DNA of 64,000 nucleotides from Thermoplasmatales archaeon (GCA_027310185.1 DAIDBH010000017.1:64001-128000), one strand, 5' to 3'. Counted from the stretch's first letter, positions 3,918-46,118 are shown. The notes: a model not told the origin generated them from the sequence alone. A program made the numbers and translations.

Positions 3918-5494
3918 ACATATCTCCTCCTTTTCTCTATATCATGCAGTACATTGACTACCTCATTGCATCTTTCACTATTTTCCCTGTATATTCTCTC
4001 AAACTTCTCATATGCGTCATTTCCGTAAATTGAGATCATGCTCTCCTTCAGGAGTCTGATATCATATGCCATGTCAGTAAGCGTTTTAGATACCTTTCCC
4101 ATGCTGGGATCAATCAGATATATATTGCCTTCATTTAAGATCATATTGTTAAGTGTCAGATCGCCATGAATGATATCCACTTCATGCAGTCTTGAAACAC
4201 ATTTCGCTATCTCATCCAGGATTTCCACATCTACTTTCCCGATGTTTGATGCCTGAATTCCTGGTATTTCTTCCATTTCAAAGCTCATTCTATCTTCATT
4301 GATTGAAAATACCGAAGGCACATTTAAACCAGCTTCCATCATCCTGTGGAGCATCACTATTTCATTCCTCATTCTCTTATTTCTCAACCTGAGATCAAGC
4401 TCCCTGTTCCTGTATGACTTAATGATTCTTTCTTTCACGATTGAATCGTATTCGTGAAATCTTCCTTCACTTATTATCGACTCGGCCCCTTTCTTGCTGT
4501 ATATTATATTATTCTCTGATACCCACGGAGTGTCAACTTCATCTATGCGATACATCTGATCTATTCCAGTATCTTCTATTTTCTGACCACCGTAATTAAG
4601 GTATGTGAGAATAGCAGCCTGCCCGATCATTGCACCATTATCCATGCAGTATTTCTCTGGCGTTTCAAAAACCCTCACACCGAGATCTTCTGCCATCCTC
4701 GATATCATTTCCTTCAGCCTGTTATTCCGGGCTACTCCTCCAGCCAGAAGTATTTCGCTCTTTCCAGATGTGTACAGTGCCCTCTCAAGTGTTTCAACAA
4801 GCATGGAGAATGATATTTCCTGAATGCTGTATGAAACGTCGCTCTCACTTTCCCCTTTTTGAAGTAAATTTTTCGCGGCTGTGTATATTCCAGAAAATGA
4901 ACAGTCCATTCCGCTAACTGAATATGGAAGATCGAGCAAATTTGAACCCTGGATAGCAAGCCTTTCTATTTCAGGTCCACCTGGAAACGGAAATCCCATA
5001 TCCCTTGCAATTTTATCCAGCATATTTCCAATCCCAATATCAAGTGTCTCTCCAAAGACCCTGTATCTGCCGTTCTTGTGGGCTATTATCTGTGTATTTC
5101 CCCCTGAAACGTATAACATGACTGGATCATTGGCGCCTGTTTCCCTCCTCCCAATCTCAATATGCCCGAGGGGATGGTTTACTCCCACAATCGGTATATC
5201 AAGCTTGAGTGCCATTGCTCTTGCAGCCACCGCCGTGATTTTCAAAGATGGTGGAAGTCCTGGACCTCTCGAAAATCCAATCATTTCTATGTTTGATTCC
5301 CTGAATCCGGATTCCTGTATTGCCTTATGTATAACATTAACAACATTTTCAAAGTGAAAATTTGCAGCCTCCCTGGGATTTATTCCACCCTTTACCGGCT
5401 TATAGGTTCTTGATACCATGGAATATATGTGTTTTTCATCCAGTACTGATGCGCTTGTTGTATGAGCAGTGCCTTCGAGGCCGAGGGTAAGCAT
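3914..5494 (-). CDS. kae1: Bifunctional Kae1 (t6A threonylcarbamoyltransferase)-Bud32 kinase fusion
   Basis: LGLEGTAHT, HPLGH, YVSGGNTQ, GETLD and DNGAMI motifs, then a C-terminal kinase with KGAES and HGDLT. Confidence 0.95.
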   Translation of the reverse strand: MLTLGLEGTAHTTSASVLDEKHIYSMVSRTYKPVKGGINPREAANFHFENVVNVIHKAIQESGFRESNIEMIGFSRGPGLPPSLKITAVAARAMALKLDIPIVGVNHPLGHIEIGRRETGANDPVMLYVSGGNTQIIAHKNGRYRVFGETLDIGIGNMLDKIARDMGFPFPGGPEIERLAIQGSNLLDLPYSVSGMDCSFSGIYTAAKNLLQKGESESDVSYSIQEISFSMLVETLERALYTSGKSEILLAGGVARNNRLKEMISRMAEDLGVRVFETPEKYCMDNGAMIGQAAILTYLNYGGQKIEDTGIDQMYRIDEVDTPWVSENNIIYSKKGAESIISEGRFHEYDSIVKERIIKSYRNRELDLRLRNKRMRNEIVMLHRMMEAGLNVPSVFSINEDRMSFEMEEIPGIQASNIGKVDVEILDEIAKCVSRLHEVDIIHGDLTLNNMILNEGNIYLIDPSMGKVSKTLTDMAYDIRLLKESMISIYGNDAYEKFERIYRENSERCNEVVNVLHDIEKRRRYV

Positions 5495-5528
5495 TTATTG
5501 TGTATGCCTGATCTTTATATAATTATGA

Positions 5529-6746
5529 TCAGGCCTTATTGTATGTGAAAAGGGCATATATCGTAGCAATGAACAGTATTCCAGCTCCAATTGATCCAAA
5601 GGCAAGCGTTTTAAGTCTGTCCTTCAGTGTTCTGGTTGCTGCAGAGCTGGCAAAAACAAGGGATGCCACAGCTGAGGATGTTGTGCTTAACCTGTATAAT
5701 ACGCCAATAGTAGTTATATGGCCATGGAAATGGAATCCAATCATGCTGAATATGGCTGGTATGAATCCCCTGAAATAGAACACTTCAAGGAAAATGATTC
5801 CTTTCAATAGAATAACCGCAAGAAATACGACTGGAAGAGTATAGGTAAATACCTGCTCAATCCTGTAGAATTTATTTGCCCTCTTCAGCGAGCCATTTCT
5901 CAGGCTCTTGAAGAATGTTCTCCATCCAGTTCTTGACCATCTTATATTCTGCTTCATGTAACTTTTTATATTGTCCTTAGGAATGGTCGTTACCCTTGCT
6001 TCAAAGGATTTTGTCGCAATGTATCCCTTGCCTATTATGTATGATGTAAGGTCTGCATCATCTCCCCCACCGTAATATGGAATTTTCCCTTCAATCTTGA
6101 AGTCGTAGAATGCTGGTGATGTAATGTATTTTCCAACAACATCCATCCTGTATGAACCAAAACCCCCATCTATTAGCATTACACTCCCGAAATGCTTCAT
6201 TGATCTCTGGATGATTTCCTTTGATCTCTCAATGAACTGTGAGGCATATGATGTGAACCTGCCATCCATAGTGTCAAATATTATATTTCCACCAACTCCT
6301 CCAACTTTTGGTGAATATTCATCCAGTATATTCTTAATGGCGTCTGTTTCAGGGATCATGTCCCCATCCATGAACACTACGATTTTTGTCTTAACTCTGG
6401 AAACCCCAAGGGCCATAGCCCTTCTCTTCCCGGAATGAACACCAGTGGTTAGAAAAGTGACACCTTCATCCTTGCACAGCGATAGGTATGGTTCCTCGAC
6501 TCCATCCCCCACTACTAGTATTTCCTTGACCTGATCCCTCACTGCTGCTATTGCCCTCTTCAGGTGATCCACCGATTCGTTGAATACTGTGATGACCAGT
6601 GTGGCATCCTGTGAAGTCAATCCATCTGATTTTACATGGGGTGAATTTTTCCTTCTTGAAAGATATGAATTTAAAAGGTAGTATGTTACTGAAAGTACGG
6701 ATGAAACCGCCGTTATGGTAATAAAAAGGAGGAATTCTATTCGCAT
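5529..6746 (-). CDS. Processive GT2 glycosyltransferase (hyaluronan/NodC synthase-like)
   Basis: GKRRA, DGD, GDDADLT and QNIRW (QxxRW) motifs, with N- and C-terminal TM helices. Confidence 0.85.
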   Translation of the reverse strand: MRIEFLLFITITAVSSVLSVTYYLLNSYLSRRKNSPHVKSDGLTSQDATLVITVFNESVDHLKRAIAAVRDQVKEILVVGDGVEEPYLSLCKDEGVTFLTTGVHSGKRRAMALGVSRVKTKIVVFMDGDMIPETDAIKNILDEYSPKVGGVGGNIIFDTMDGRFTSYASQFIERSKEIIQRSMKHFGSVMLIDGGFGSYRMDVVGKYITSPAFYDFKIEGKIPYYGGGDDADLTSYIIGKGYIATKSFEARVTTIPKDNIKSYMKQNIRWSRTGWRTFFKSLRNGSLKRANKFYRIEQVFTYTLPVVFLAVILLKGIIFLEVFYFRGFIPAIFSMIGFHFHGHITTIGVLYRLSTTSSAVASLVFASSAATRTLKDRLKTLAFGSIGAGILFIATIYALFTYNKA

Positions 6747-6835
6747 TTAATACCATGCTGTATCACTAGGCAATACTAATAAGTTAGTGGTACTAGTATT
6801 TAGTACATATAGTCCCTGAGTCTTGTTATTGAAGG

Positions 6836-7741
6836 TTAGTTGAAAACCGGTTCCTTCTCCCTTACGAATGTCCCATTTCTAAGGTCCCTCATAGCTTCGT
6901 TCAATTGCTCCCGTGTATTCATGACTACCGGGCCATACCATTCTATATGCTCATTGGTAGGATTCCCTGCAATAAACATTATGTCGCTTTCCTTTTCCCT
7001 GCCCTTAATTTCTATGAACTCACCGGCCCTTGAAAATATGAAGGCTTTCCTTTCAGTCATCTCTGTTTCACCGTTTATTCTTACATTTCCGGAAAAGTTG
7101 AACATTATGGCTCTCTTGCCTTCCAATTCGCTCAATTCTATGGTGTCTCCTTCCTTTATCCTAATATGATAATAGTCAAGACCAAGGTCATATGCAGATT
7201 TGTATGGTCCAGCGGCATCTCCAAAATCTCCAGCGAATACTCTCACAACTGAACCTGCATCAGTTTTGTACTCTGGGATATCCAATGCTTTGTAATAGGC
7301 ATATTCCGGAGTCTTCATCTTTCTTTCTGCAGGGGTATTAACCCATAATTGTAATCCGAGAACTGTCGTGTCTAATTTTTTATCATCGCTGCCTCTCATG
7401 CTTAAGAATGTTGGCATCTCCTGATGGAAGATGCCACTTCCAGCACTCATGTCCTGTACATCACCAGGAAAAATAGTTCCCTTGTTTCCATTGCTATCTT
7501 CATGATCAGTTTTTCCCTTGATCTGGTATGTTATTGTTTCGATGCCTCTGTGAGGATGCCATGGAAATCCCTTCTCATACTCTGATGGTTCTGATGATCC
7601 GAAATAATCGAGCAGAAGAAAAGGATCGGTATATTCAAATGTAGAAGGACCACCAAAAACTCTCAGAAGCCTTACGCCTGCCCCATCTATTGTGTAGTGA
7701 CCACTCATTTCAGCTTCTATTGATTTACTTTTGATACCCAT
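6836..7741 (-). CDS. Pirin family protein
   Basis: DPFLLLD, GFPWHPHRGIETIT, AGSGIFHQE, QLWVN and GPVVMNT motifs. Confidence 0.95.
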   Translation of the reverse strand: MGIKSKSIEAEMSGHYTIDGAGVRLLRVFGGPSTFEYTDPFLLLDYFGSSEPSEYEKGFPWHPHRGIETITYQIKGKTDHEDSNGNKGTIFPGDVQDMSAGSGIFHQEMPTFLSMRGSDDKKLDTTVLGLQLWVNTPAERKMKTPEYAYYKALDIPEYKTDAGSVVRVFAGDFGDAAGPYKSAYDLGLDYYHIRIKEGDTIELSELEGKRAIMFNFSGNVRINGETEMTERKAFIFSRAGEFIEIKGREKESDIMFIAGNPTNEHIEWYGPVVMNTREQLNEAMRDLRNGTFVREKEPVFN

Positions 7742-7818
7742 ATATATGAAATTGAAGAAGTCGAATAAACATTTTCATTTTGTTTTACTTATGTTACCTG
7801 ATTTACCTTTATTGACAA

Positions 7819-8490
7819 TTATCTCGCATTCTTCCTGAATAACGTTTCCATGATCTTCTTTTCAGCGTTCCTTATGTGATACAGGGTTGTTACCTTTGAT
7901 GCACCGTTTCCGATTGAAATCTCTTCTAGACCATTTTTTCTTGGCCATTCATAATATCCAGAATTGATCGCAACCTTCAGAGTCTCAATTTCCCTGTCAG
8001 TCAGGCCGTATAGAGATGGTGATGCATTATGCAGGAGATTTCCAGAGATTATATCTGAAACAGATACCTTATCAATTATCTGCCTCTCCACAAGATTTTC
8101 TCTTCCTACCTTATCCACTATATTTTCAAGATCAGACCTGAATCTGGATACGAGCCTGAAATTCTCTATCCCATTCCTGGCAATAATGGGAAAAAGCATG
8201 AAGACGTCCTGGTTCATCACTGCCTTAAGCATTCCATGTCCTATTTTATATGAATCCACAAACATGTTACCCTTGAATATTGTTGTTTCATAACTCCTGA
8301 AATCACCCTTTAATATGGATAATACCTGATCACTTTCTCTTCTGGCCGCTGTCAGGATAACGTGATTGAGGTTTCCCTTTATGATTCTTGCATTCTGGAT
8401 CAGTATTGAGTCTGGACTGTATTCACTTGCAGTAGCTATACTGCATTTCCCTCCAACCCCAAGTTCCAAGTAATACAATTCATAATGCAT
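7819..8490 (-). CDS. Bat/HTH_10-type transcriptional regulator
   Basis: C-terminal LTDREIETLKVAINSGYYEWPRK...HIRNAEKKI. The ATG at 8490 avoids overlap with the divergent gene. Confidence 0.85.
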   Translation of the reverse strand: MHYELYYLELGVGGKCSIATASEYSPDSILIQNARIIKGNLNHVILTAARRESDQVLSILKGDFRSYETTIFKGNMFVDSYKIGHGMLKAVMNQDVFMLFPIIARNGIENFRLVSRFRSDLENIVDKVGRENLVERQIIDKVSVSDIISGNLLHNASPSLYGLTDREIETLKVAINSGYYEWPRKNGLEEISIGNGASKVTTLYHIRNAEKKIMETLFRKNAR

Positions 8491-8544
8491 GAACTGAATA
8501 AACTTAAATCTTTTGAAGGTGTACATTGGATATTAATAGTAGGA

Positions 8545-9783
8545 ATGCATTTTTTGGCTGTGAGAACCTCAAAAACTGCTGCAGAGAAAATATTTTCGGA
8601 AAAGTCAGGTACAGATGCAAGTACCGGAGATTATGTCTGGGCAGTTCCAGATCTGGTTTACATGCACGATGTTCTGGGTCCCTCCTCAGTTCAGGCACTC
8701 AGGAATATTTCTGGTGGCAAGACAAATTATAAGGGAAAGGTAGTTGTTGTGAATGATCATATATTCCCTCCTAAGGATATTGAAAGTGCCCATAACATAA
8801 GAATGATGAATGAAAATGCAGAAATTGAAAAGTGGGAAATTATCCCATTTGGAGATGGTATAGAACATACATTACTGATCGAAAATGGAACAATAAAACC
8901 AGGAATGCTTGTGGTGGGAACTGATTCCCATACCGTTACTGCTGGTGCGGCTGGTGCTATGGGAGTGGGTCTTGGTTCTACCGATATTGGATCACTGCTG
9001 GCAATGGGAAAACAGTGGTTCAGGGTGCCTAAAACCATCCTGTTCAATATAGAAGGGAGCAGGGGAAGGTACATTACTGGAAAAGACCTTATTTTAATGA
9101 TTCTGAAAGACATCGGAGTGAATGGTGCCAATTATGCTGCCATGGAATTTCACCTTCATAAAAATTCGTCGTTTAACATGGATGATGATCTATCAATTGC
9201 AAATATGACAGTTGAGGCAGGGGCAAAGACATGCATCATAAAGAATTCCGGGCTACCGGAAAGCAATGAATTTCCAGAAAGCGATAAAGAGGCTGATTAC
9301 ATTGAAAAGAATTATGATATTTCTGAATTGGAACCTCAGATTTCTATGCCATATTCACCAGGAAATGTAACAGTTGCAAGCGAGCTAGAAGGTACAGAAG
9401 TGAATCAGGTATACATCGGGAACTGCTCCAATGGAACGATAAGTGACCTTAGAGAGGCTGCTTCAGTGCTGAGGGGAAAACACGTAAAAAAAGGCGTGAA
9501 GATGATAATTATCCCGGCTACAAGGAAGATATTCCAACAGGCAATTAGAGAGGGTTTAATTGATATATTCATAGAATCTGGTGCAACAGTCGGGCCGTCT
9601 ACATGTGGAGCATGCGCTGGCCTGCATATGGGAGTACTGGCGGAAAATGAAGTGTGCATAACAAACATAAACAGGAATTTCATGGGAAGAATGGGACATC
9701 CGTCCAGCAAGGTATATCTTGCAAACTCATATGTTGCAGCTGAGAGTGCAGTGGAAGGTTTTATACATGTGCCAGGTGAATAG
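8545..9783 (+). CDS. LeuC/HacA/DmdA-family aconitase-type hydratase large subunit
   Basis: HD, DH, GIEH, GTDSHT, IGNCSNG, CGACAG and NRNFMGRMG motifs. Start at 8545 (ATG) or 8560 (GTG). Confidence 0.9.
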   Translation: MHFLAVRTSKTAAEKIFSEKSGTDASTGDYVWAVPDLVYMHDVLGPSSVQALRNISGGKTNYKGKVVVVNDHIFPPKDIESAHNIRMMNENAEIEKWEIIPFGDGIEHTLLIENGTIKPGMLVVGTDSHTVTAGAAGAMGVGLGSTDIGSLLAMGKQWFRVPKTILFNIEGSRGRYITGKDLILMILKDIGVNGANYAAMEFHLHKNSSFNMDDDLSIANMTVEAGAKTCIIKNSGLPESNEFPESDKEADYIEKNYDISELEPQISMPYSPGNVTVASELEGTEVNQVYIGNCSNGTISDLREAASVLRGKHVKKGVKMIIIPATRKIFQQAIREGLIDIFIESGATVGPSTCGACAGLHMGVLAENEVCITNINRNFMGRMGHPSSKVYLANSYVAAESAVEGFIHVPGE

Positions 9784-10255
9784 ATTGGTATCTGTTTTTC
9801 TGTTGGGAGACAACATTGATACTGACAATATTGCACCTGGTGGTTATCTGCACCTGCCCATTGAGAAGCAGGTTGAGCACTGCCTTGAATCAGTGATAAA
9901 TAACTTCTCTGGTAAAGTTACAGGGGGAGATATAATAATTGCTGGTGAAAATTTCGGTACTGGATCCTCAAGGGAGCAGGCACCGGTTCTGTTAAGGACT
10001 ATTGGAATCAGGGCAGTGTTTGCAAGAAGTTTTTCAAGATTGTTCTTCAGGAACTCTATCAATGTTGGATTGTATCCAGGAATATATAACGGCCATGTTC
10101 CATTTTCAAATATGGAAAATGTAGAGATTGATTTTGAGCATTGCAAGATAGAAAGCAAAAATGGAATTATTCTATTCGAGCCGCCTACAGGAATTCTGAA
10201 GGAGATACTTGACTCTGGAGGAATGGTTAATTACGCGAGAAAAATGATAGAATGA
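9776..10255 (+). CDS. LeuD/HacB/DmdB-family hydratase small subunit
   Basis: GDNIDTDNIAP, NFGTGSSREQA and SFSRLFFRNSINVG motifs. Overlaps the large-subunit stop. Confidence 0.9.
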   Translation: MNRLVSVFLLGDNIDTDNIAPGGYLHLPIEKQVEHCLESVINNFSGKVTGGDIIIAGENFGTGSSREQAPVLLRTIGIRAVFARSFSRLFFRNSINVGLYPGIYNGHVPFSNMENVEIDFEHCKIESKNGIILFEPPTGILKEILDSGGMVNYARKMIE

Positions 10256-10324
10256 AGGGCTGGCAGGTTTTGAAGTTATGCCTGCATTTAAGAATGGAAC
10301 GAAATAATTAAGATTATACTTTTA

Positions 10325-11443
10325 TCACTTTCCTGAAATTCTCACAATTTCTTCGGTAGTAAATCCAAGACTTGAAAGCACGTCCTCTGTATCCTCACCC
10401 AGTTCGGGCACATGTTCTTCTTTCTTTGTAGAAACTGGTGTGGCCGGTAGAAAAATATTCCTCCCCTTGAAGCTGACATTATTCATTCCGTTTAATGCAT
10501 CCTCATCATTAAGAAGATCCCAGGGCTTCCTCAGGAAAGAATAAACTATCTGATGTCTGTCCAGTAAGTTGGAGAGTTGGCCAGATTCATATTTCGAGAT
10601 TATCCCTGCAAGATAGGGTATCAGCGTTTCCCTGTTTTCGTATCTGTTCCTATTGGTAGCATATTTATTAGAAAAATCTTCTCCAATGCCAAACACATTG
10701 CAAAATTTCTTCCACTGCTCATCGGTGGTAACAGCGATGAATATTTTCCTTTTATCCGAGGTCAGGAAGAAATCATAAATTCCCCATGCAAACCCTGCTT
10801 CATTGATTGGCAATAATTCCTTCTGATTGATCTGGTATGTTGATATATGCTGACCTATCATGAACATGGCATTTGAAAACAGTGAGGAGTCTATGCTCTT
10901 ACCCTTTCCTGTTCTTTCTCTTTCAAGAATAGCGTCGTATATTCCTATCACTGCCATTGATGCTGAAAACATATCCACCAGTGAGGCCCCAACTCTCATT
11001 GGCCTTTCCTTCAGGCCATTCATGTAGGCTATTCCAGAATCTATCTCTATGGGGTAGTCTAGTGACCTTCTTCCCTCTTTTTTTCCCTTCCCATATCCCC
11101 TGATTGAGACATATATCAATCCAGGATTCGTAATCTTAAGGGTTTCATAATCAAGATTCAATCCCTTGAGAAAATCACTGCTGAAATTATCGATTACTAT
11201 GTCTGCACTGTTTATCAGTCTCTTCAGGGATTCCTTTCCATCCGGAACCTTTGTGTTTATGACAACGCTTTTCTTGTTCCTGTTATAGTAAGCAAATGAA
11301 CCTGCACTCTCCCCTGTAAGATTTCTTGCAATGTCTCCAACACCTGGTCGTTCCACCTTAATCACTTCAAAACCCATTTCAGACAGTATTAACCCGGCAG
11401 TTGGGCCAGCCACTATGTGTCCAAGTTCTACTACTCTGTACAT
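10325..11443 (-). CDS. Family III CoA-transferase (CaiB/BaiF)
   Basis: VVELGHIVAGP, VIKVERP, NRNKKSV, SIRGYG, catalytic-region SLVD and PELGEDT motifs. Confidence 0.93.
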   Translation of the reverse strand: MYRVVELGHIVAGPTAGLILSEMGFEVIKVERPGVGDIARNLTGESAGSFAYYNRNKKSVVINTKVPDGKESLKRLINSADIVIDNFSSDFLKGLNLDYETLKITNPGLIYVSIRGYGKGKKEGRRSLDYPIEIDSGIAYMNGLKERPMRVGASLVDMFSASMAVIGIYDAILERERTGKGKSIDSSLFSNAMFMIGQHISTYQINQKELLPINEAGFAWGIYDFFLTSDKRKIFIAVTTDEQWKKFCNVFGIGEDFSNKYATNRNRYENRETLIPYLAGIISKYESGQLSNLLDRHQIVYSFLRKPWDLLNDEDALNGMNNVSFKGRNIFLPATPVSTKKEEHVPELGEDTEDVLSSLGFTTEEIVRISGK

Positions 11444-12474
11444 AGCTCATCAGCCTCCTTTATGATCTCATCCACTCCTATTACCCTCCCCTCACTGGCC
11501 GATATATCTTTTACCTTCTTCATTAGCGTGGATAGTTCTTCCCTGTTCAGATTTATATTCCTCCCTTCTAGAATCTTTTTTAGCATTGATTTTCCAGTAT
11601 AAACATTAACAGAAAAGTCCTCACCTTCAAACACGTCTGAAAAGGCCGCGTGTGTTCCAGCAGTGTGTATATATGTATTCTTTCCAACGTTTGGAAGATT
11701 CTTCCTGAAAAAGGATTCTCCTGCCTTCTTCAAAACAATTTCCAGAAACTCCTTTGTCAAGTTATCAATCCGGTCTATCTGCAATTCGCTGTCCATGCCA
11801 GTTTCCTTCAGGTATCTTGCAATGATTCCTGTGTCCGTGATTCCATTCCTCTCACCAAGACCCAAAAAAGTGGTATCTATTATATCAGCACCTGCCTCGA
11901 TACCGGCTATGGCATTGCTCACAGATAATCCATGATCGTTGTGGCAGTGAATTTCTATCTTTGCTTCCGAGACCTTTCTTGATTCTCCCACAACATCCCT
12001 GATCATTCCGGGGGTTGCCCTTCCCATGGTATCAGGGAGCTGGATTGTGTCAACGCCTAGTCCAGATAGAGCTTTTACAATTTTCACCAGCTGCTCCGTC
12101 CTGTACTGCGTTATATCTACAATACCAATTTCAACCTTCTTTCCAAGAGAAACTGCATATTTCACATTGCTGTATATTTCATCAAGAGAATCATACTTGA
12201 AAGGGAAATGGAGAGAAATGTTTGCTCCTGTTGAATCTATAAGATCAATATCTCCCCTTATGGCCCTTCCCAATCCAAAAACTTCGTGAAAGTATCCGCT
12301 CCTTGTTACTTCAGATGCAATTATAGTCTCGGATTCGTGAGCCGAAGGATAGGAGATCAATATTCTCTTTATCCCACATTCCGATATTTTTTTTGCAAGA
12401 TTCAATTTTTCTTCCACGCTGAAACTTATCCCCGGAGCCTGCATACCCTCCCTTAATGAATCATCAGAAATCAT
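11431..12474 (-). CDS. DRE-TIM metallolyase, homocitrate/isopropylmalate synthase-like, no regulatory domain
   Basis: DDSLREGMQ, LPDTMG, HCHNDHG, GLGERNG and HTAGTH motifs. Confidence 0.85.
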   Translation of the reverse strand: MISDDSLREGMQAPGISFSVEEKLNLAKKISECGIKRILISYPSAHESETIIASEVTRSGYFHEVFGLGRAIRGDIDLIDSTGANISLHFPFKYDSLDEIYSNVKYAVSLGKKVEIGIVDITQYRTEQLVKIVKALSGLGVDTIQLPDTMGRATPGMIRDVVGESRKVSEAKIEIHCHNDHGLSVSNAIAGIEAGADIIDTTFLGLGERNGITDTGIIARYLKETGMDSELQIDRIDNLTKEFLEIVLKKAGESFFRKNLPNVGKNTYIHTAGTHAAFSDVFEGEDFSVNVYTGKSMLKKILEGRNINLNREELSTLMKKVKDISASEGRVIGVDEIIKEADELCTE

Positions 12475-12569
12475 GATTTAATATTCAGGATATTTACTTA
12501 AATTGATACCCTAACACGTTAGAATATATTGAGAAGTAATGAAAAAATAAGAATAAATTTTAAAAATTT

Positions 12570-13937
12570 TTATTTTGCTATGGCTTCAATAAACTTGTTT
12601 GTGCTCTTCGGTCCAAGTAATATTAGTACTACTGAACAGATTATAACGAGTATCCATACAAATGTGAAAATTCCATCTGCGTTATGACCTCCTATGAAGA
12701 AGGCTATGAACAGCACAAGTATTGTGGTTGAGATCCTGCTTATGGAATAAACAAATCCAGAAGCAGTGGTTCTCACCCTTGTTGGGAAAATTTCAGCATT
12801 GTACTGGTGCATGAAGTTCGAGAAGTTCCACAGCATAAATGCAGTGAGGAAACCGAATATTACGGCTTCATCTATTCCGTGAATCACCGCGAAGAATGTA
12901 CCGAAAACGCCTCCCAAAACTGCGAAGAGTATGATTCCCCATTTCCTCTCAATCTTATCGATAATGAATATATTGAATACACTTCCGATAAGAAATCCTG
13001 AGAAAATTACTGCTGCAGCACCTAAAGGATCACTCGTTGGGTATGACACACTTACCAGTCCTGGTGCAAAGACTACAAACCCATAGAATATACCGGACTG
13101 GAAGAACATGAAAATAGCCATCATTATAGTCTGATTTCTCACATCTGGAGCAAAGATTTCCGTGTATTTCGAAACATGTATGGGAGCTTCAATTGTGTCT
13201 GTGACTGGAGGGAGTGCTGTCATTTTTGTTTCCCTCAATACTTCTGCCTCGATTACATCCATTTCTTTCTTTGCTTCATCCATCTTGCCATGAGTGGAAA
13301 GCCATCTTGGTGATTCTTTCAGTCTGAATCTTATTAACCAGACAACTATACCTGATGCTCCCATGAACCATAGTGGAATTCTGAATGAATAATAACCAAG
13401 CCCCGCAGTCAACGCTGTTATGTATATTATAAGCGGTGCTGATGTGACTGCTATGGTATAGATAAGGGCCAGCCAAGCTCCTCTCCTCTTCCTGACAAAG
13501 ATCTCTGTTCCATAACTGTCCACGAGTGGAAATTCTCCACCTACACCTATTCCGCCGATCAACACAAAGACTGCAACGAGTTGCCATGAGTCCATGAAAC
13601 CAGCGATTATCATACCAAGACCGAAAATCAACTGGTTATATAGGAACACAGCCTTTCTTCCTCTGGTATCTGCCAGTCTACCAAAAAATATAGACCCCAA
13701 GAACTCTCCCACAAAGAAGAAAGCGGGTAGAGCATAAGTTGCAAGAACTGAGGTACTTGATATTGCAAAATATGTTGCAACCAATCCAAGTATTGCTCCG
13801 TTTCCAAGCAGCATTAAACTCTCTGCCCACTCTCCACTTGTCAGCATTAGAGCAAATTTCACGTGAAATCTGCTATATGGCAGTCTTTCCAATCTTCCGG
13901 CAATATTATTCTCCGGATTCGAGTCATTTTCTACCAT
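12570..13937 (-). CDS. MFS transporter (aromatic acid/carboxylate:H+ symporter-like)
   Basis: RLERLP, GRLADTRGRK, ESPRWL and EIFPTRVR motifs, about 12 TM helices. Confidence 0.9.
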   Translation of the reverse strand: MVENDSNPENNIAGRLERLPYSRFHVKFALMLTSGEWAESLMLLGNGAILGLVATYFAISSTSVLATYALPAFFFVGEFLGSIFFGRLADTRGRKAVFLYNQLIFGLGMIIAGFMDSWQLVAVFVLIGGIGVGGEFPLVDSYGTEIFVRKRRGAWLALIYTIAVTSAPLIIYITALTAGLGYYSFRIPLWFMGASGIVVWLIRFRLKESPRWLSTHGKMDEAKKEMDVIEAEVLRETKMTALPPVTDTIEAPIHVSKYTEIFAPDVRNQTIMMAIFMFFQSGIFYGFVVFAPGLVSVSYPTSDPLGAAAVIFSGFLIGSVFNIFIIDKIERKWGIILFAVLGGVFGTFFAVIHGIDEAVIFGFLTAFMLWNFSNFMHQYNAEIFPTRVRTTASGFVYSISRISTTILVLFIAFFIGGHNADGIFTFVWILVIICSVVLILLGPKSTNKFIEAIAK

Positions 13938-14237
13938 GGTGGAATAAAACTTCAATTCTATATATATTGAGATTATAACAGGTTAGGGGTAATATTTCTA
14001 GTAATTCTCAAATTAGCTTTAAATATTGTTCAAATTTTATTTTATGTATATTTATTGCATAATTCTGTTGGTACAATGATACATACAAATTAACCAAGAG
14101 TTGAAGGTTCAATGTATTCGAATCATTTAATTCGGTTGGTTTGTAAATTCAGTCTGATTGAACCAAATACTTTTGAATTGATAAATTTATAAGCCATTTT
14201 AGTATTTCCCATAATCTTAGAAAGGAGGATTAATTAA

Positions 14238-43652: not shown

Positions 43653-44468
43653 ATGAAGTTAACAGTAGCACACACGCCAGACCCGGATGACGCATTCATG
43701 TTTTATGCAATGATCACTGGAAAAATTAAGACCAGTATGGAGTATGAACAGATAATAAAGGATATTGAAACACTGAATCATGAAGCTGAAACAGGGATGT
43801 ATGATGTAACGGCAATATCTGCAAATGAGTATGCAGATGTAAATGAAACATATGCTCTCACAAGATCGGGAGCAAGTTTTGGACTCACCTATGGACCACT
43901 GGTTGTTGGTAAGAGTGAGGTAGATTTCAAGAAGGCGATTATAGGATCACCAGGACTTGGAACATCTTCGCACCTCCTATTCAGGATGTTTGTGGAGAAA
44001 GACGCAGACCTTAGGCCAATGAGATTTGACCTCATACCTGATTCAATCATGAAGGGAGATATACAGGCAGGAATAATAATTCACGATGAACAGCTTACTT
44101 ACCAGAATAAGGGCCTGATAAAACTTGCAGCGATCTATGATAAATGGAAGGAATACGCAGGTGACCTGCCGGTTCCACTTGGATTTAATGCAATAAGGAA
44201 ATCACTTGGAAAAGAAGTGATTGCCAATTACATTAAAGATTTTGAGAACTCTATAAAATATGCACAGCAGCATGTGGAAGAGGCAGCAACTTATGCAATG
44301 AAATACGCGAGATACAAGGACCTTGAGCTGGAGACAAAATTCATCCAGATGTATGTTAACGATCTTTCAATAGACTTTGGAGAAAAGGGAAGGAAAGCCC
44401 TAAAAATGTATTATGATCGGGCTTTCAAGATGGGGTTGTTGCCAGAGTTCAAGATGGAAATAGTGTAA
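43653..44468 (+). CDS. mqnD: 1,4-dihydroxy-6-naphthoate synthase (futalosine pathway)
   Basis: HTPDPDDAFMFYA, DIETLN, IIHD, LPVPLG and MYVN motifs. Confidence 0.9.
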   Translation: MKLTVAHTPDPDDAFMFYAMITGKIKTSMEYEQIIKDIETLNHEAETGMYDVTAISANEYADVNETYALTRSGASFGLTYGPLVVGKSEVDFKKAIIGSPGLGTSSHLLFRMFVEKDADLRPMRFDLIPDSIMKGDIQAGIIIHDEQLTYQNKGLIKLAAIYDKWKEYAGDLPVPLGFNAIRKSLGKEVIANYIKDFENSIKYAQQHVEEAATYAMKYARYKDLELETKFIQMYVNDLSIDFGEKGRKALKMYYDRAFKMGLLPEFKMEIV

Positions 44469-44579
44469 AAATTTCCTTAGTTATTAAGCCTTCCATCAAA
44501 TTCCAGACCTATTTGCTCTTATGATATCACCTTCTAGAATATTGCATATTTTTCTACGATACTCATGCAGGTGAACCTA

Positions 44580-45464
44580 TCACTTGATAGCAAAACTCTC
44601 ATTACTCCATATAAAAGTAAAATTATCCCATGTCATTTTTATCTGCGTAAAAATTAAGTAGTTATTTAATTCATCTAAATCTTTGGAATTTAAGGTGTTT
44701 ATGATAACTGTTTGATTGCACTGTATCGTAAAATTTTCATATGATATTCTTGAAACTTTTTTATCACTCATGTTGTAATAAGAAGTTGATATGATTACAT
44801 GAGCGATAGAATGCTTAGAATCCCCAATACAGAAAGCTTTTTCTGAAACATTACCATGTCTAGATTTATTTACTAAGTCAAGACCCTCCACGTGAATTAT
44901 ATAATTATTCATTTCAACACTTTTTGCAGATAGTTCTGTGTTATTGATCCCCCTCACTCCTAAGTAAGGAACTATAGCATAATTTCCAGGTATTGCCGGT
45001 TCGAATATTGGTTTTGTTGTTTGGTTTCCCTGATATTGGATGATTGTTCCGTTCCAGTTCACGGATATGAAAGTTTCTTTATTGGCTTTTATGGTTTTAA
45101 CCGGTATGGTTGTGTATAATGCCGTTGCACCATTAGTCTGCCTGTAATTTGATGTACAGTTTATAGCCTTTGTGAACACGTTATTATCATAACAATTAAT
45201 GTTGTTGAATACAGTTGATTGGTTTCCGATGTAATAAAGTTGTAGCCACGGGTTTGAATAAACTGATGTTTCAAAACTTGCTCCATTGAATGGTTCAATT
45301 GATATGGTGATATTGGTACCCTGATCAGGTTTTGTGTAATTTGATTGTGCAGCAAAATAACAGTTATAGTAGGGTTTTATTGATGATTTATATACGTAAA
45401 CTCCAGAAGTAGTAAAGATTGCAATTATGAGTATAATTATAAGTATCCTAAACTCTTTTTTCAC
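44580..45464 (-). CDS. Hypothetical membrane-anchored/secreted glycoprotein
   Basis: N-terminal hydrophobic anchor, N/T/S-rich sequence with many NxS/T sequons, AT-rich DNA. Confidence 0.7.
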   Translation of the reverse strand: MKKEFRILIIILIIAIFTTSGVYVYKSSIKPYYNCYFAAQSNYTKPDQGTNITISIEPFNGASFETSVYSNPWLQLYYIGNQSTVFNNINCYDNNVFTKAINCTSNYRQTNGATALYTTIPVKTIKANKETFISVNWNGTIIQYQGNQTTKPIFEPAIPGNYAIVPYLGVRGINNTELSAKSVEMNNYIIHVEGLDLVNKSRHGNVSEKAFCIGDSKHSIAHVIISTSYYNMSDKKVSRISYENFTIQCNQTVIINTLNSKDLDELNNYLIFTQIKMTWDNFTFIWSNESFAIK

Positions 45465-46118
45465 TTTTTATCATCCTGAAGTTTTATTTATAATTTTATG
45501 AAGCTGTTGAATCATAGTTTTAGCCTCCTCCCATTTTAACACAAGAGCATGAGTAGTAACCTATTTAACCAAATGTACCAGTTCGACTTGTAGATCGATT
45601 GGATGCACAATTATCAAAATGTCATTAGTATTTATTTTTAAACTCGTTTTTAGTATATTGGCTGATGGATATGTTTATTTCCATTACCCGACTATTTTAT
45701 CTAATTTTGCTCTAATTTACTTTTTTTATCAGGTTTAAGCTCTTTCGTTGCTTAGATATATCTTTTCTTACAATTATGACTTATCTTCGGAAATTTGGTA
45801 TTGCTAGATATCTATGAGTAACTAACATATCCATTCATGGCTGGGTCTATATAGTATTGGAGAAATGAAGAATTCTCATCGTAATGAGCCTTCCAGGATT
45901 TTGGCTTCTCCATTCAACTATGAGGCCATGTTGCTATTCAGTAATAGATTCTTGTTATGGGAGCTAAACAATAATGGACTTTGCAAATTCCTTAATGGAA
46001 AAGAGAGAATAATAGAAATTTTATATTTTGACTTAAATAACTTGAGTTACTTTCCTTATTAACTAAGATTTCTAATCTGTGTGAGTTAGGTAATTTTCAA
46101 AGAAAATTGAGTAGAGAT

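Follow-up and report, generated by a model that had tools for sequence, protein, structure and literature searches.

The attachment of coenzyme A (CoA) to a free organic acid, followed by retro-Claisen cleavage of the thioester, is the logic by which citrate lyase, the malyl- and citramalyl-CoA lyases, the itaconate route and an enzyme pair of Chloroflexus operate. Here we describe a gene cluster of a Thermoplasmatales archaeon that may follow the same logic with other proteins. It lies in a stretch of 64,000 nt (GCA_027310185.1, DAIDBH010000017.1:64001–128000; this whole stretch is referred to as the window), in which ORF calling followed by Pfam and NCBIfam profile scans of the window proteins, the basis for all gene assignments, placed six open reading frames (ORFs) at positions 7819–13955. 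These specify a transcription regulator, the large and small subunits of a LeuCD-like hydratase, a family III CoA-transferase, a DRE-TIM metalloenzyme and an MFS transporter. Judging from gene content and protein sequence, we hold with moderate confidence that these genes constitute a module, under its own regulator, for the breakdown of a 2-substituted malate-type acid such as citrate or citramalate. The principle of transferring CoA and then cleaving by a retro-Claisen reaction is known already; new here are the lineage used for the putative cleavage, its combination with a free-acid Fe–S hydratase and TcuAB, and its spread among acidophilic archaea. No description of the cluster was found in the literature searched.

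The closest arrangement of enzymes is that of Chloroflexus aurantiacus, which reportedly (in work by Friedmann and colleagues from 2006/2007) employs a succinyl-CoA:(R)-citramalate CoA-transferase together with an (R)-citramalyl-CoA lyase, the former a family III transferase and the latter of the 3-hydroxy-3-methylglutaryl-CoA (HMG-CoA) lyase branch. That pair resembles the one described here in combining a family III transferase, which activates a free 2-hydroxy-dicarboxylate, with a DRE-TIM enzyme, which splits the activated acid to acetyl-CoA and a 2-oxoacid; it differs in that the DRE-TIM enzyme of the present cluster belongs to the synthase branch, and in that the archaeal pair is accompanied by a transporter and a regulator and, optionally, by LeuCD and TcuAB. 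Citrate lyase (CitDEF), the CitE/HpcH citryl-, malyl- and citramalyl-CoA lyases and the Ict-Ich-Ccl route for itaconate likewise couple a CoA or acyl-carrier transfer to retro-Claisen cleavage, but their lyase fold is unrelated, and our cluster has neither an acyl-carrier subunit nor an enoyl-CoA hydratase, the predicted hydration being instead that of a free acid by an Fe–S enzyme.

Two further groups of enzymes are relevant. TcuA of Salmonella is reported to convert tricarballylate to cis-aconitate, with TcuB handing on the electrons and TcuC serving as the importer (PMC10468695). Relatives of our cluster resemble tcuRABC in carrying TcuA and a TcuB-like protein beside an MFS or MHS transporter and a regulator; however, the cis-aconitate of Salmonella is described as simply entering the tricarboxylic acid cycle (PMC10468695), whereas TcuAB is here linked to LeuCD and to the CoA-transferase/DRE-TIM pair. 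Homocitrate synthase and homoaconitase, known from the aminoadipate route to lysine and from coenzyme B synthesis in methanogens, are the closest proteins of solved structure for each of the three enzymes (6ktq/3ivs for the DRE-TIM protein, 4kp2 for LeuC and 2pkp for LeuD). Nevertheless, the corresponding equivalog models remain far below cut-off, the equivalents of Glu227, the Glu of ‘GEQ’ and the Tyr399 segment of the synthases are absent, no homoisocitrate dehydrogenase accompanies the genes, and the substrate loop reads YLH rather than YLRT. Re-citrate synthase, reported to be related to homocitrate synthase, shows that this lineage can handle oxaloacetate and citrate (PMC12016533), and this precedent makes a citryl-CoA-cleaving member plausible. 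By its description, Re-citrate synthase is nonetheless set apart as a hydrolysing synthase of anaerobes without Si-citrate synthase, whereas the host of our cluster has two enzymes of the Si type.

Linkage and distribution in archaea

In a pattern scan covering a single genome of each species, 79 loci were recovered; 63 of these (L006–L068) were analysed and the other 16 (L069–L084) set aside, since their matches are at most 33 % identical and represent either ordinary ‘GEQ’ synthases or a sister family in bacteria. When the ORFs of the 63 loci were clustered at ≥ 28 % identity over ≥ 60 % of their length, the DRE-TIM gene was found in all of them and the CoA-transferase gene in 62, followed by genes for the regulator (49), the MFS transporter (43), LeuD (23), LeuC (22), a TcuA-like flavoprotein (13) and a TcuB-like membrane Fe–S protein (11). 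The CoA-transferase gene lay downstream of the DRE-TIM gene, on the same strand and within 150 nt, in 58 of the 63 loci; the order was reversed in two (L042 and L043), two others (L061 and L063) had just a distant CoA-transferase paralogue further off, and L065, with a partial gene, had none. Many of the loci are on short contigs. Among the 19 with at least 6–7 kb of flank on both sides, the CoA-transferase was present in 19, the regulator in 18, a transporter in 19 (the cluster-type MFS in 16, an MHS-type protein in the remainder), LeuCD in 11 and TcuAB in seven. Carriers belong to three archaeal phyla, and comprise Thermoplasmatales, Caldisphaera/Acidilobaceae, Thermocladium and metagenome-assembled genomes (MAGs) of Nitrososphaeria. 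The order and orientation of the accessory genes vary between lineages and their linkage is kept: in Thermocladium (L058) LeuC, LeuD, MFS, DRE-TIM, CoA-transferase and regulator follow each other on a single strand, and in L025 TcuA, TcuB, LeuC and LeuD are contiguous, again on a single strand. As linkage recurs in 63 orthologous loci, the arrangement is beyond chance. The co-occurrence across archaea that a preliminary description of this DNA had called for is therefore borne out by 63 loci in three phyla. The self-contained six-gene island that it had also proposed survives in part, in that the genes are indeed linked, but the set is not fixed: the DRE-TIM/CoA-transferase pair forms an invariant core, and just 22–23 of the 63 loci have LeuCD. 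LeuCD and TcuAB are thus optional upstream feeders of the core pair.

The transporter (MFS, Sugar_tr/MFS_1 by Pfam match; 12570–13937, minus strand) is the best-conserved protein of the cluster, with 96, 89, 88 and 82 % identity in L006–L009 compared with 83, 78, 68 and 61 % for the DRE-TIM protein. Its frame extends to 13955, and the first in-frame ATG is at 13937, the end coordinate given in the preliminary description. It is presumed to be a proton-coupled importer of the acid. Additionally, an MHS-family transporter was observed near the core pair in six loci (L036, at 6244–9028, as well as L021, L026, L040, L060 and L067); it scores 274 bits on a metabolite/H+ symporter model and 166 bits on TcuC, the latter below cut-off. 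L021, L040, L060 and L067 are without the cluster-type MFS, and L036 has two tandem MHS copies. The TcuA of the relatives reaches 522 bits on the equivalog model for tricarballylate dehydrogenase TcuA (cut-off 369), and their TcuB stays below the model cut-offs (196 vs 524 and 180 vs 247). The linkage to TcuAB is consistent with a route in which an acid is dehydrogenated, hydrated, activated with CoA and finally cleaved.

In order to follow the genes through whole genomes, 121 sampled genomes of the order were searched with a DRE-TIM profile that separates orthologues (≥ 268 bits, mostly > 430) from ordinary synthase paralogues (≤ 180 bits), and an orthologue was found in 38 of them. LeuC of the module type, recognized by identities of 51 % or more and scores from 446 bits upwards (canonical LeuC reaching at most 45 % identity), was present in 16 genomes, all of which bear the core, and it was always on the same contig as the DRE-TIM gene and within 5.2 kb of it. 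TcuA was detected in ten genomes, in six of them within 3 kb of the DRE-TIM gene and in two on contigs apart from it. With module LeuCD found solely beside the core and TcuAB mostly so, the core pair can stand alone, and such nested dependency on a core is what characterizes enzymes that feed a catabolic route from upstream. In several genomes of genera g3 and g13 the module occurs alongside canonical LeuA–LeuC clusters, and it is therefore not their leucine pathway. Within the genus of the host, five of eight genomes match the DRE-TIM profile at E ≤ 1 × 10−30 and four have a true orthologue, the match in the fifth (G120) being just a paralogue of 129.7 bits. This patchy distribution is as in accessory catabolic modules. 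Six of the DRE-TIM orthologue matches contain one in-frame stop (TAG, TGA or TAA; G044, G052, G060, G064, G009 and G086, of which four belong to family f3); they may be pseudogenes, or the terminal stop codon of the gene may have been included in the match.

The host genome itself offers no biosynthetic context for the cluster. The island contains no β-decarboxylating dehydrogenase, as the preliminary description had stated for LeuB and homoisocitrate dehydrogenase, and its suggestion that leuB be sought elsewhere yielded none in the genome: the one Iso_dh gene is an equivalog of NADP-isocitrate dehydrogenase (577.7 bits, cut-off 567.3). Profile searches of the genome likewise recovered the cluster's DRE-TIM gene as the only HMGL-like gene, no other LeuA-like gene, and a single LeuC-like gene besides a match in a 902-aa open frame taken as AcnA. 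For ketol-acid reductoisomerase (KARI_N) the genome gave only a 33-bit partial match, over positions 2–68 of 165, and all 14 control genomes score with this model. LysA (329.5 bits, cut-off 297.9) and DapB are present, and lysine is made via the diaminopimelate (DAP) route; the DapB_C search gave no match in control genomes of Thermus, Deinococcus and Sulfolobus, users of the aminoadipate pathway. As LeuB, a further LeuA-like gene and a real KARI are all missing and lysine is made through DAP, the cluster does not serve chain elongation towards leucine, isoleucine or lysine. An aminoadipate lysine route, raised by a LysX_arch match, was also considered and excluded. That match lies within a LysW-ArgC-LysZ-LysJ-LysX-LysK cluster with argG and argH directly after it (G000:C4:100831–109519; L088, 4831–13519), so that the LysW carrier system probably serves arginine here, not lysine; LysA and DapB are present, and the DRE-TIM protein is without the homocitrate-synthase residues. 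Similarly, a role of the DRE-TIM protein as the organism's citrate synthase, of the Re type, was rejected, as two Si-type citrate synthases exist (G000:C18:104195 and C1:280704). No CitE/HpcH-type lyase in the genome exceeded its family cut-off, the best score being 20.9 bits for HpcH_HpaI. With a possible replacement for a glyoxylate-cycle malate synthase in mind, a single match to the ICL family (56 bits over positions 150–251, in a 300-aa frame; G000:C12:241232–241528, L094) was seen, and is taken to be a protein of the methylisocitrate-lyase/phosphoenolpyruvate-mutase type; together with the two citrate synthases it would fit a methylcitrate cycle (PrpB/PrpC-like).

Sequence features of the enzymes

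The DRE-TIM protein (11431–12474, minus strand; 347 aa; Pfam HMGL-like, 145 bits) had been likened to an HMG-CoA lyase in the preliminary description, and this assignment did not hold. When the family profile was scored on solved structures in the PDB, it gave 160.9 and 136.5 bits for homocitrate synthases (6ktq and 3ivs), 133.6 bits for isopropylmalate synthase (IPMS; 3ewb) and 113.3 bits for citramalate synthase (3ble), but 57.7 bits for HMG-CoA lyase (2cw6), and this over positions 127–251 only. In the reverse direction, the HMG-CoA lyase model PRK05692 scored 57.8 bits (cut-off 246) over residues 126–241 only. These profile and model scores place the enzyme in the synthase lineage and outside that of the lyases. 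The family also carries the synthase-type loop ‘GIGERNG’, at which position lyases presumably have a Cys-containing loop. Nevertheless, the NCBIfam synthase models all remain far below cut-off (NF002085, 180.8 vs 517; TIGR02146, 162.1 vs 413.6; TIGR02090, 156.3 vs 484.8), and source annotations call the protein either ‘hypothetical’ or ‘2-isopropylmalate synthase’.

Catalytic residues were mapped onto MAMS by motif spacing (PMC11532901) and by structure-profile alignments. Arg8 and Glu9 thereby correspond to Arg89 and Asp90 of MAMS, Gln12 to Gln93, Thr149 to Thr257, His176 and His178 to His288 and His290, and His275 to His388. These metal- and substrate-binding residues are kept: among 64 orthologue sequences R8, E9 and Q12 are each found in 61, T149 in 60 (with S in three more), H176 and H178 in 64, and H275 in 63. 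The acidic residues of the condensing enzymes are another matter. Position 119, the equivalent of MAMS Glu227, is V in 54 orthologues, I in four, T in two, P and S in one each, with two gaps, so that Glu occurs in 0 of 62. At position 11 (Met or Leu), which corresponds to MAMS Glu92 (the Glu of ‘GEQ’), L is found in 36 sequences, M in 24 and E in one. Position 39, where synthases have the Glu of ‘IE.G.P’, is Leu here and reads L in 48, I in six, M and V in three each, and Q and E in one each. Furthermore, the segment following ‘AGTHA’, which bears MAMS Tyr399, is deleted, and a set of new invariant residues has appeared (H46, S48, E49, Y42, D75 and D77). In the MAMS study, E227A, E227D and Y399S are reported as inactive and E227Q as retaining activity, and His388 is the proposed base (PMC11532901). 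As such, the protein constitutes a separate, new branch of the homocitrate/isopropylmalate-synthase lineage that, by alignment, is without acidic active-site residues of the condensing enzymes. We infer from this pattern that it keeps enolate chemistry on acetyl-CoA and a 2-oxoacid, rather than synthase-type completion of the reaction, as would suit a reversible lyase whose CoA-ester substrate comes from the coupled transferase.

The residue signature of this clade (LREG[ML]Q, YPxAHxSE, Val at the position of the catalytic-site Glu and the deletion after AGTHA) extends beyond the archaeal loci. A search of 1.84 billion representatives returned about five full-length representatives above 320 bits and a tail of relatives at 220–265 bits that shares the DRE-TIM signature, Desulfobacula proteins among them. 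In two Desulfobacula MAGs (L071, 8085–14560, and L069) this sister family shows 29–31 % identity, with DDTLREGMQ, YPxAHxxE and no Glu at the Glu227 position; its neighbours differ from those in the archaeal loci and are a tautomerase-like gene, a radical-SAM gene and genes for three subunits of a 2-oxoacid:ferredoxin oxidoreductase, and tblastn with the window proteins detected no CoA-transferase or LeuCD homologue in these two loci at E ≤ 1 × 10−10. In the ESM Atlas the ‘HMGL-like’ clusters listed (94 members in Thermoplasmatota, 51 in Thermoproteota) are all unnamed. Named relatives of the protein include those of Cuniculiplasma sp. (68 %), Oxyplasma meridianum (61 %), Ferroplasma, Caldiplasma and Thermoplasma volcanium (45 %).

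The CoA-transferase (10325–11443, minus strand) is covered by Pfam CoA_transf_3 over residues 3–352 (277.6 bits). Named equivalogs are far below cut-off (succinate–glutarate CoA-transferase, 176 vs 750 bits; succinyl-CoA:mesaconate CoA-transferase, 152.6 vs 700), and the nearest structures are 4ed9, SUGCT (9br6; 129.9 bits) and formyl-CoA transferase. The Asp of the motif ‘vGaslvD’ is aligned with an Asp in all five structures shown, which include these three and YfdE, and D157 is invariant in 15 orthologues; this conserved Asp of family III is what we take to be the nucleophile. The nearest named relatives act on dicarboxylates, namely glutarate, mesaconate, HMG and oxalate. A complex prediction for the DRE-TIM protein with the CoA-transferase (score 0.00, mark 0.32) was used as evidence neither way.

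The LeuC-like protein (8545–9783, plus strand, in an ORF open from 8485) is a large subunit of an aconitase-family [4Fe–4S] hydratase. It exceeds the cut-offs of the subfamily models NF001614 (465.5 bits, 385), TIGR01343 hacA_fam (445.5, 385.7) and TIGR02086 (437.2, 410.2), and does not reach the LeuC and HacA equivalogs (LEU2, 409.5 vs 610.7; HacA_Meth, 384 vs 550). Its best solved relative is the large subunit of homoaconitase from M. jannaschii (4kp2), with 319.6 bits as against 265 for isopropylmalate (IPM) isomerase (4nqy/4kp1), and its motifs ‘igNCsNG’ and ‘stCgaCag’ align with Cys-bearing motifs of 4kp2. The LeuD-like small subunit (9767–10255, plus strand, in an ORF open from TTG 9719) follows the same pattern: it scores 147.2 bits on TIGR02087 (cut-off 109) and 149.2 on HacB_Meth, below the cut-off of 230, and is closest among solved proteins to the homoaconitase small subunit 2pkp (134.6 bits vs 94 and 87 for IPM isomerase subunits). 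Its substrate loop ‘PGGYLH-L’ aligns to YLRT in 2pkp and to YLVY in 3vba, and the loop His is found in 21 of 24 module LeuDs.

Arrangement and occurrence of the locus

The positions, families and orientations that the preliminary description gave for the six genes agree with the ORF calls and the Pfam and NCBIfam matches. The regulator gene (7819–8526, minus strand) lies divergent from the gene for the LeuC-like protein, and the two would overlap if the longest ORFs were taken. Start sites were chosen from the lengths of orthologues (regulator, median 217 aa; LeuC, open frames of 409–412 aa); the regulator would on this basis likely start at its second Met, 8490, and LeuC at ATG 8545, leaving a gap of 54 bp (8491–8544), close to the 55 bp or so described previously. 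This divergent region is presumed to be a shared promoter/operator. The regulator had been labelled ‘Bat-type’, which only its HTH_10 domain justifies (65.2 bits, residues 175–227); the N-terminal ~170 aa match no Pfam family, HTH_10 being the sole Pfam match of the protein at E < 0.1. For LeuD, ATG 9767 was preferred because the orthologues have a median length of 166 aa. The LeuCD and CoA-transferase genes converge with a 69-nt spacer between them, and the end of the DRE-TIM ORF overlaps the CoA-transferase ORF, as had been noted before, by 13 nt. Flanking genes are unrelated to the cluster, with Pirin and a GT2 glycosyltransferase on one side and ribosomal protein S6e and aIF2-gamma on the other. 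The Pirin-family gene (Pirin + Pirin_C; 6836–7741, minus strand) directly adjoins the regulator, but was excluded as a member of the cluster, being adjacent in just four of the 63 loci (L006, L007, L008 and L012), all of them close relatives. Elsewhere in the window, positions 44001–46000 have a GC content of 0.337, compared with ~0.40–0.42 in adjoining 2-kb bins.

The host is a Thermoplasmatales archaeon of acid mine habitats, with an assembly that is 99.5 % complete. Near-identical DNA occurs in 20 runs from seven studies, which cover mine-drainage, mine-tailings and fuel-cell metagenomes, and two of these entries possibly represent the window's own source. Contigs identical to the cluster are also found in two RNA-labelled libraries (X3 and X20) of one sample, the probable source sample. 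Those of X3 span 8587–12461, 12629–13923 and 5000–8365, at depths of 36.6, 250 and 148 compared with a flat 16.5 in the DNA run; as these are contigs from a single sample with possible DNA content, neither the depths nor the uncovered intergenic stretches were used as evidence for expression or transcript ends.

Candidate route, substrate and alternatives

On the reading that we favour, the MFS protein would import the acid, and the LeuCD-like Fe–S hydratase would convert a cis-unsaturated acid of the cis-aconitate or citraconate type to the 2-hydroxy acid. The family III enzyme would then transfer CoA from a succinyl-CoA or acetyl-CoA donor to this hydroxy acid, and the DRE-TIM enzyme, putatively coupled to the transferase in translation, would act as a 2-substituted-malyl-CoA lyase that releases acetyl-CoA and a 2-oxoacid, namely oxaloacetate if the ester is citryl-CoA or pyruvate if it is citramalyl-CoA. 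In relatives, not in the host genome, a TcuAB-type flavoprotein dehydrogenase would extend the route upstream to the saturated acid, of the tricarballylate type, and the HTH_10 protein may control the divergent promoters. The analysis shows the gene families, their conserved linkage, the nested dependency of the feeder genes, the missing biosynthetic context and a remodelled active site; that the reaction runs as cleavage rather than synthesis is a prediction, and so are the CoA donor, the substrate and what the regulator does. The preliminary description had proposed the same sequence of import, hydration, activation and cleavage; co-conservation, the lack of biosynthetic context and the TcuAB link speak for it, and what had to be given up are the lyase lineage of the DRE-TIM enzyme and the fixed island.

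Several observations weigh against the catabolic reading. The DRE-TIM sequence is closer to synthases than to any known acyl-CoA lyase, and the loss of the Glu and Tyr residues could signify other chemistry rather than ‘condensation without hydrolysis’. The Arg and His positions of homocitrate synthase, residues that presumably bind the distal carboxylate, are occupied here by E115 (51 of 64) and L68 (60 of 64), which disagrees with a pocket for a tricarboxylate or 2-oxoglutarate. Among the 38 core-bearing genomes 22 are without module-type LeuC, so that hydration is not essential to core function, and two of the ten TcuA genomes (G082 and G106) are without a DRE-TIM orthologue. TcuA was not found in the host genome with the L007 protein as query, and the presence of AcnA would make a second aconitate hydratase redundant. 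The LeuD loop position is M, N or T in three loci from outside the Thermoplasmatales, the His being confined to that order. Finally, the direction of transport is itself putative.

As to the substrate, the citraconate, maleate or (homo)aconitate proposed in the preliminary description can be narrowed somewhat, the context leaning weakly to tricarboxylates (TcuAB, homoaconitase-like LeuCD) and not to citraconate or maleate. Within the catabolic explanation, tricarboxylates are accordingly the leading class, if at less than even chances; they are favoured slightly because of TcuAB, because the LeuCD subunits and the DRE-TIM protein are each nearest to ‘homo-citrate’ enzymes and because of the precedent of the Re-citrate synthase lineage. 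C5 dicarboxylates (citraconate, (R)-citramalate, methylsuccinate) are nearly as likely, because of E115 and L68, the missing TcuA and the AcnA of the host genome, and some other 2-substituted malate has the smallest, though still appreciable, share. In its most specific form, the proposal is tentatively that of a reversible, Re-type citryl-CoA/2-alkylmalyl-CoA lyase derived from the synthase branch, which would complete a path from tricarballylate through cis-aconitate, citrate and citryl-CoA to oxaloacetate and acetyl-CoA and would have spread by gene transfer; we regard it as less likely than not.

A route for C4/C5 acids, the version given in the preliminary description, shares the whole of the gene-architecture evidence with the foregoing. 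Here citraconate (or maleate) would be imported, hydrated by LeuCD to (R)-citramalate (or D-malate), activated and cleaved to pyruvate (or glyoxylate) and acetyl-CoA, and in relatives the TcuAB-like enzyme would oxidize methylsuccinate. Leu68 at the position of the homocitrate-synthase His, the alignment of His89 in ‘LH.PF’ with ‘IHIF’ of IPMS and the lack of a basic residue at the homocitrate-synthase Arg position are features that suit a small or apolar group more than a carboxylate, and are what such a route would lead one to expect, as are the nearest named CoA-transferase models, which act on glutarate, mesaconate and HMG. The Chloroflexus pair, a family III transferase and a DRE-TIM lyase for (R)-citramalate, speaks for this route as well. 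In disagreement with this, however, TcuA passes the equivalog cut-off for tricarballylate dehydrogenase, LeuCD is nearer to homoaconitase than to isopropylmalate/citramalate isomerase (319.6 vs 265 and 134.6 vs 87–94 bits) and the DRE-TIM profile scores 160.9 bits on homocitrate synthase compared with 113.3 on citramalate synthase. As such, we consider the C4/C5 route rather unlikely.

The probability that the DRE-TIM protein instead condenses acetyl-CoA with a 2-oxoacid without hydrolysis of the thioester is low. In such a biosynthetic or energy-saving scheme the transferase would recycle the CoA, e.g. onto acetate, providing ATP-free activation or detoxification of acetate at low pH, LeuCD would isomerize the product and the MFS protein would export or exchange it. 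In favour of it, the DRE-TIM protein has condensing synthases alone as its nearest relatives and keeps the metal site, Arg8, Gln12 and His275; its tight coupling to a CoA-transferase would also permit conservation of the thioester, and acidophiles are poisoned by acetate. Nevertheless, no downstream dehydrogenase or gene specific to leucine, isoleucine or lysine is linked to the cluster or needed, two citrate synthases already exist in the genome, and a regulator, an importer-type MFS or MHS protein and TcuAB linkage are typical of catabolism; moreover, the distribution is patchy even inside one genus and the residues essential for condensation in the MAMS mutants are absent. Catabolism of the HMG/leucine type, with a SUGCT-like transferase and an HMG-CoA-lyase-like DRE-TIM enzyme yielding acetoacetate and acetyl-CoA, would account for the high rank of SUGCT structures among solved relatives of the transferase (129.9 bits), for the HMGL-like Pfam match and for ‘G(M/L)Q’ in place of ‘GEQ’ (HMG-CoA lyases presumably carry ‘GLQ’ there), but is very improbable given the weak and partial HMG-CoA lyase matches (57.8 bits vs 246; 57.7 over 127–251), the retained ‘GIGERNG’ loop and the lack of any place for LeuCD and TcuAB in HMG metabolism.

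Thermoplasmatales and other acid-loving archaea are dominant in acid mine drainage and at solfataric sites, and little is known of how they handle organic acids, which are toxic at low pH. The cluster is one of the few conserved, regulated and transporter-linked metabolic modules of acidophilic archaea. Should its reading as a catabolic module be true, it would represent a new enzymatic way to split citrate-like or citramalate-like acids, in which a biosynthetic synthase scaffold has been turned into a catabolic lyase, and would correct a systematic mis-annotation that gives these leucine auxotrophs an apparent partial leucine pathway. If the citryl-CoA route in particular were true, the cluster would amount to a citrate-lyase analogue built from entirely different folds, across three phyla of acidophilic archaea. 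The residue signature of the DRE-TIM protein, in addition, marks a wider, unstudied clade that reaches as far as Desulfobacula.

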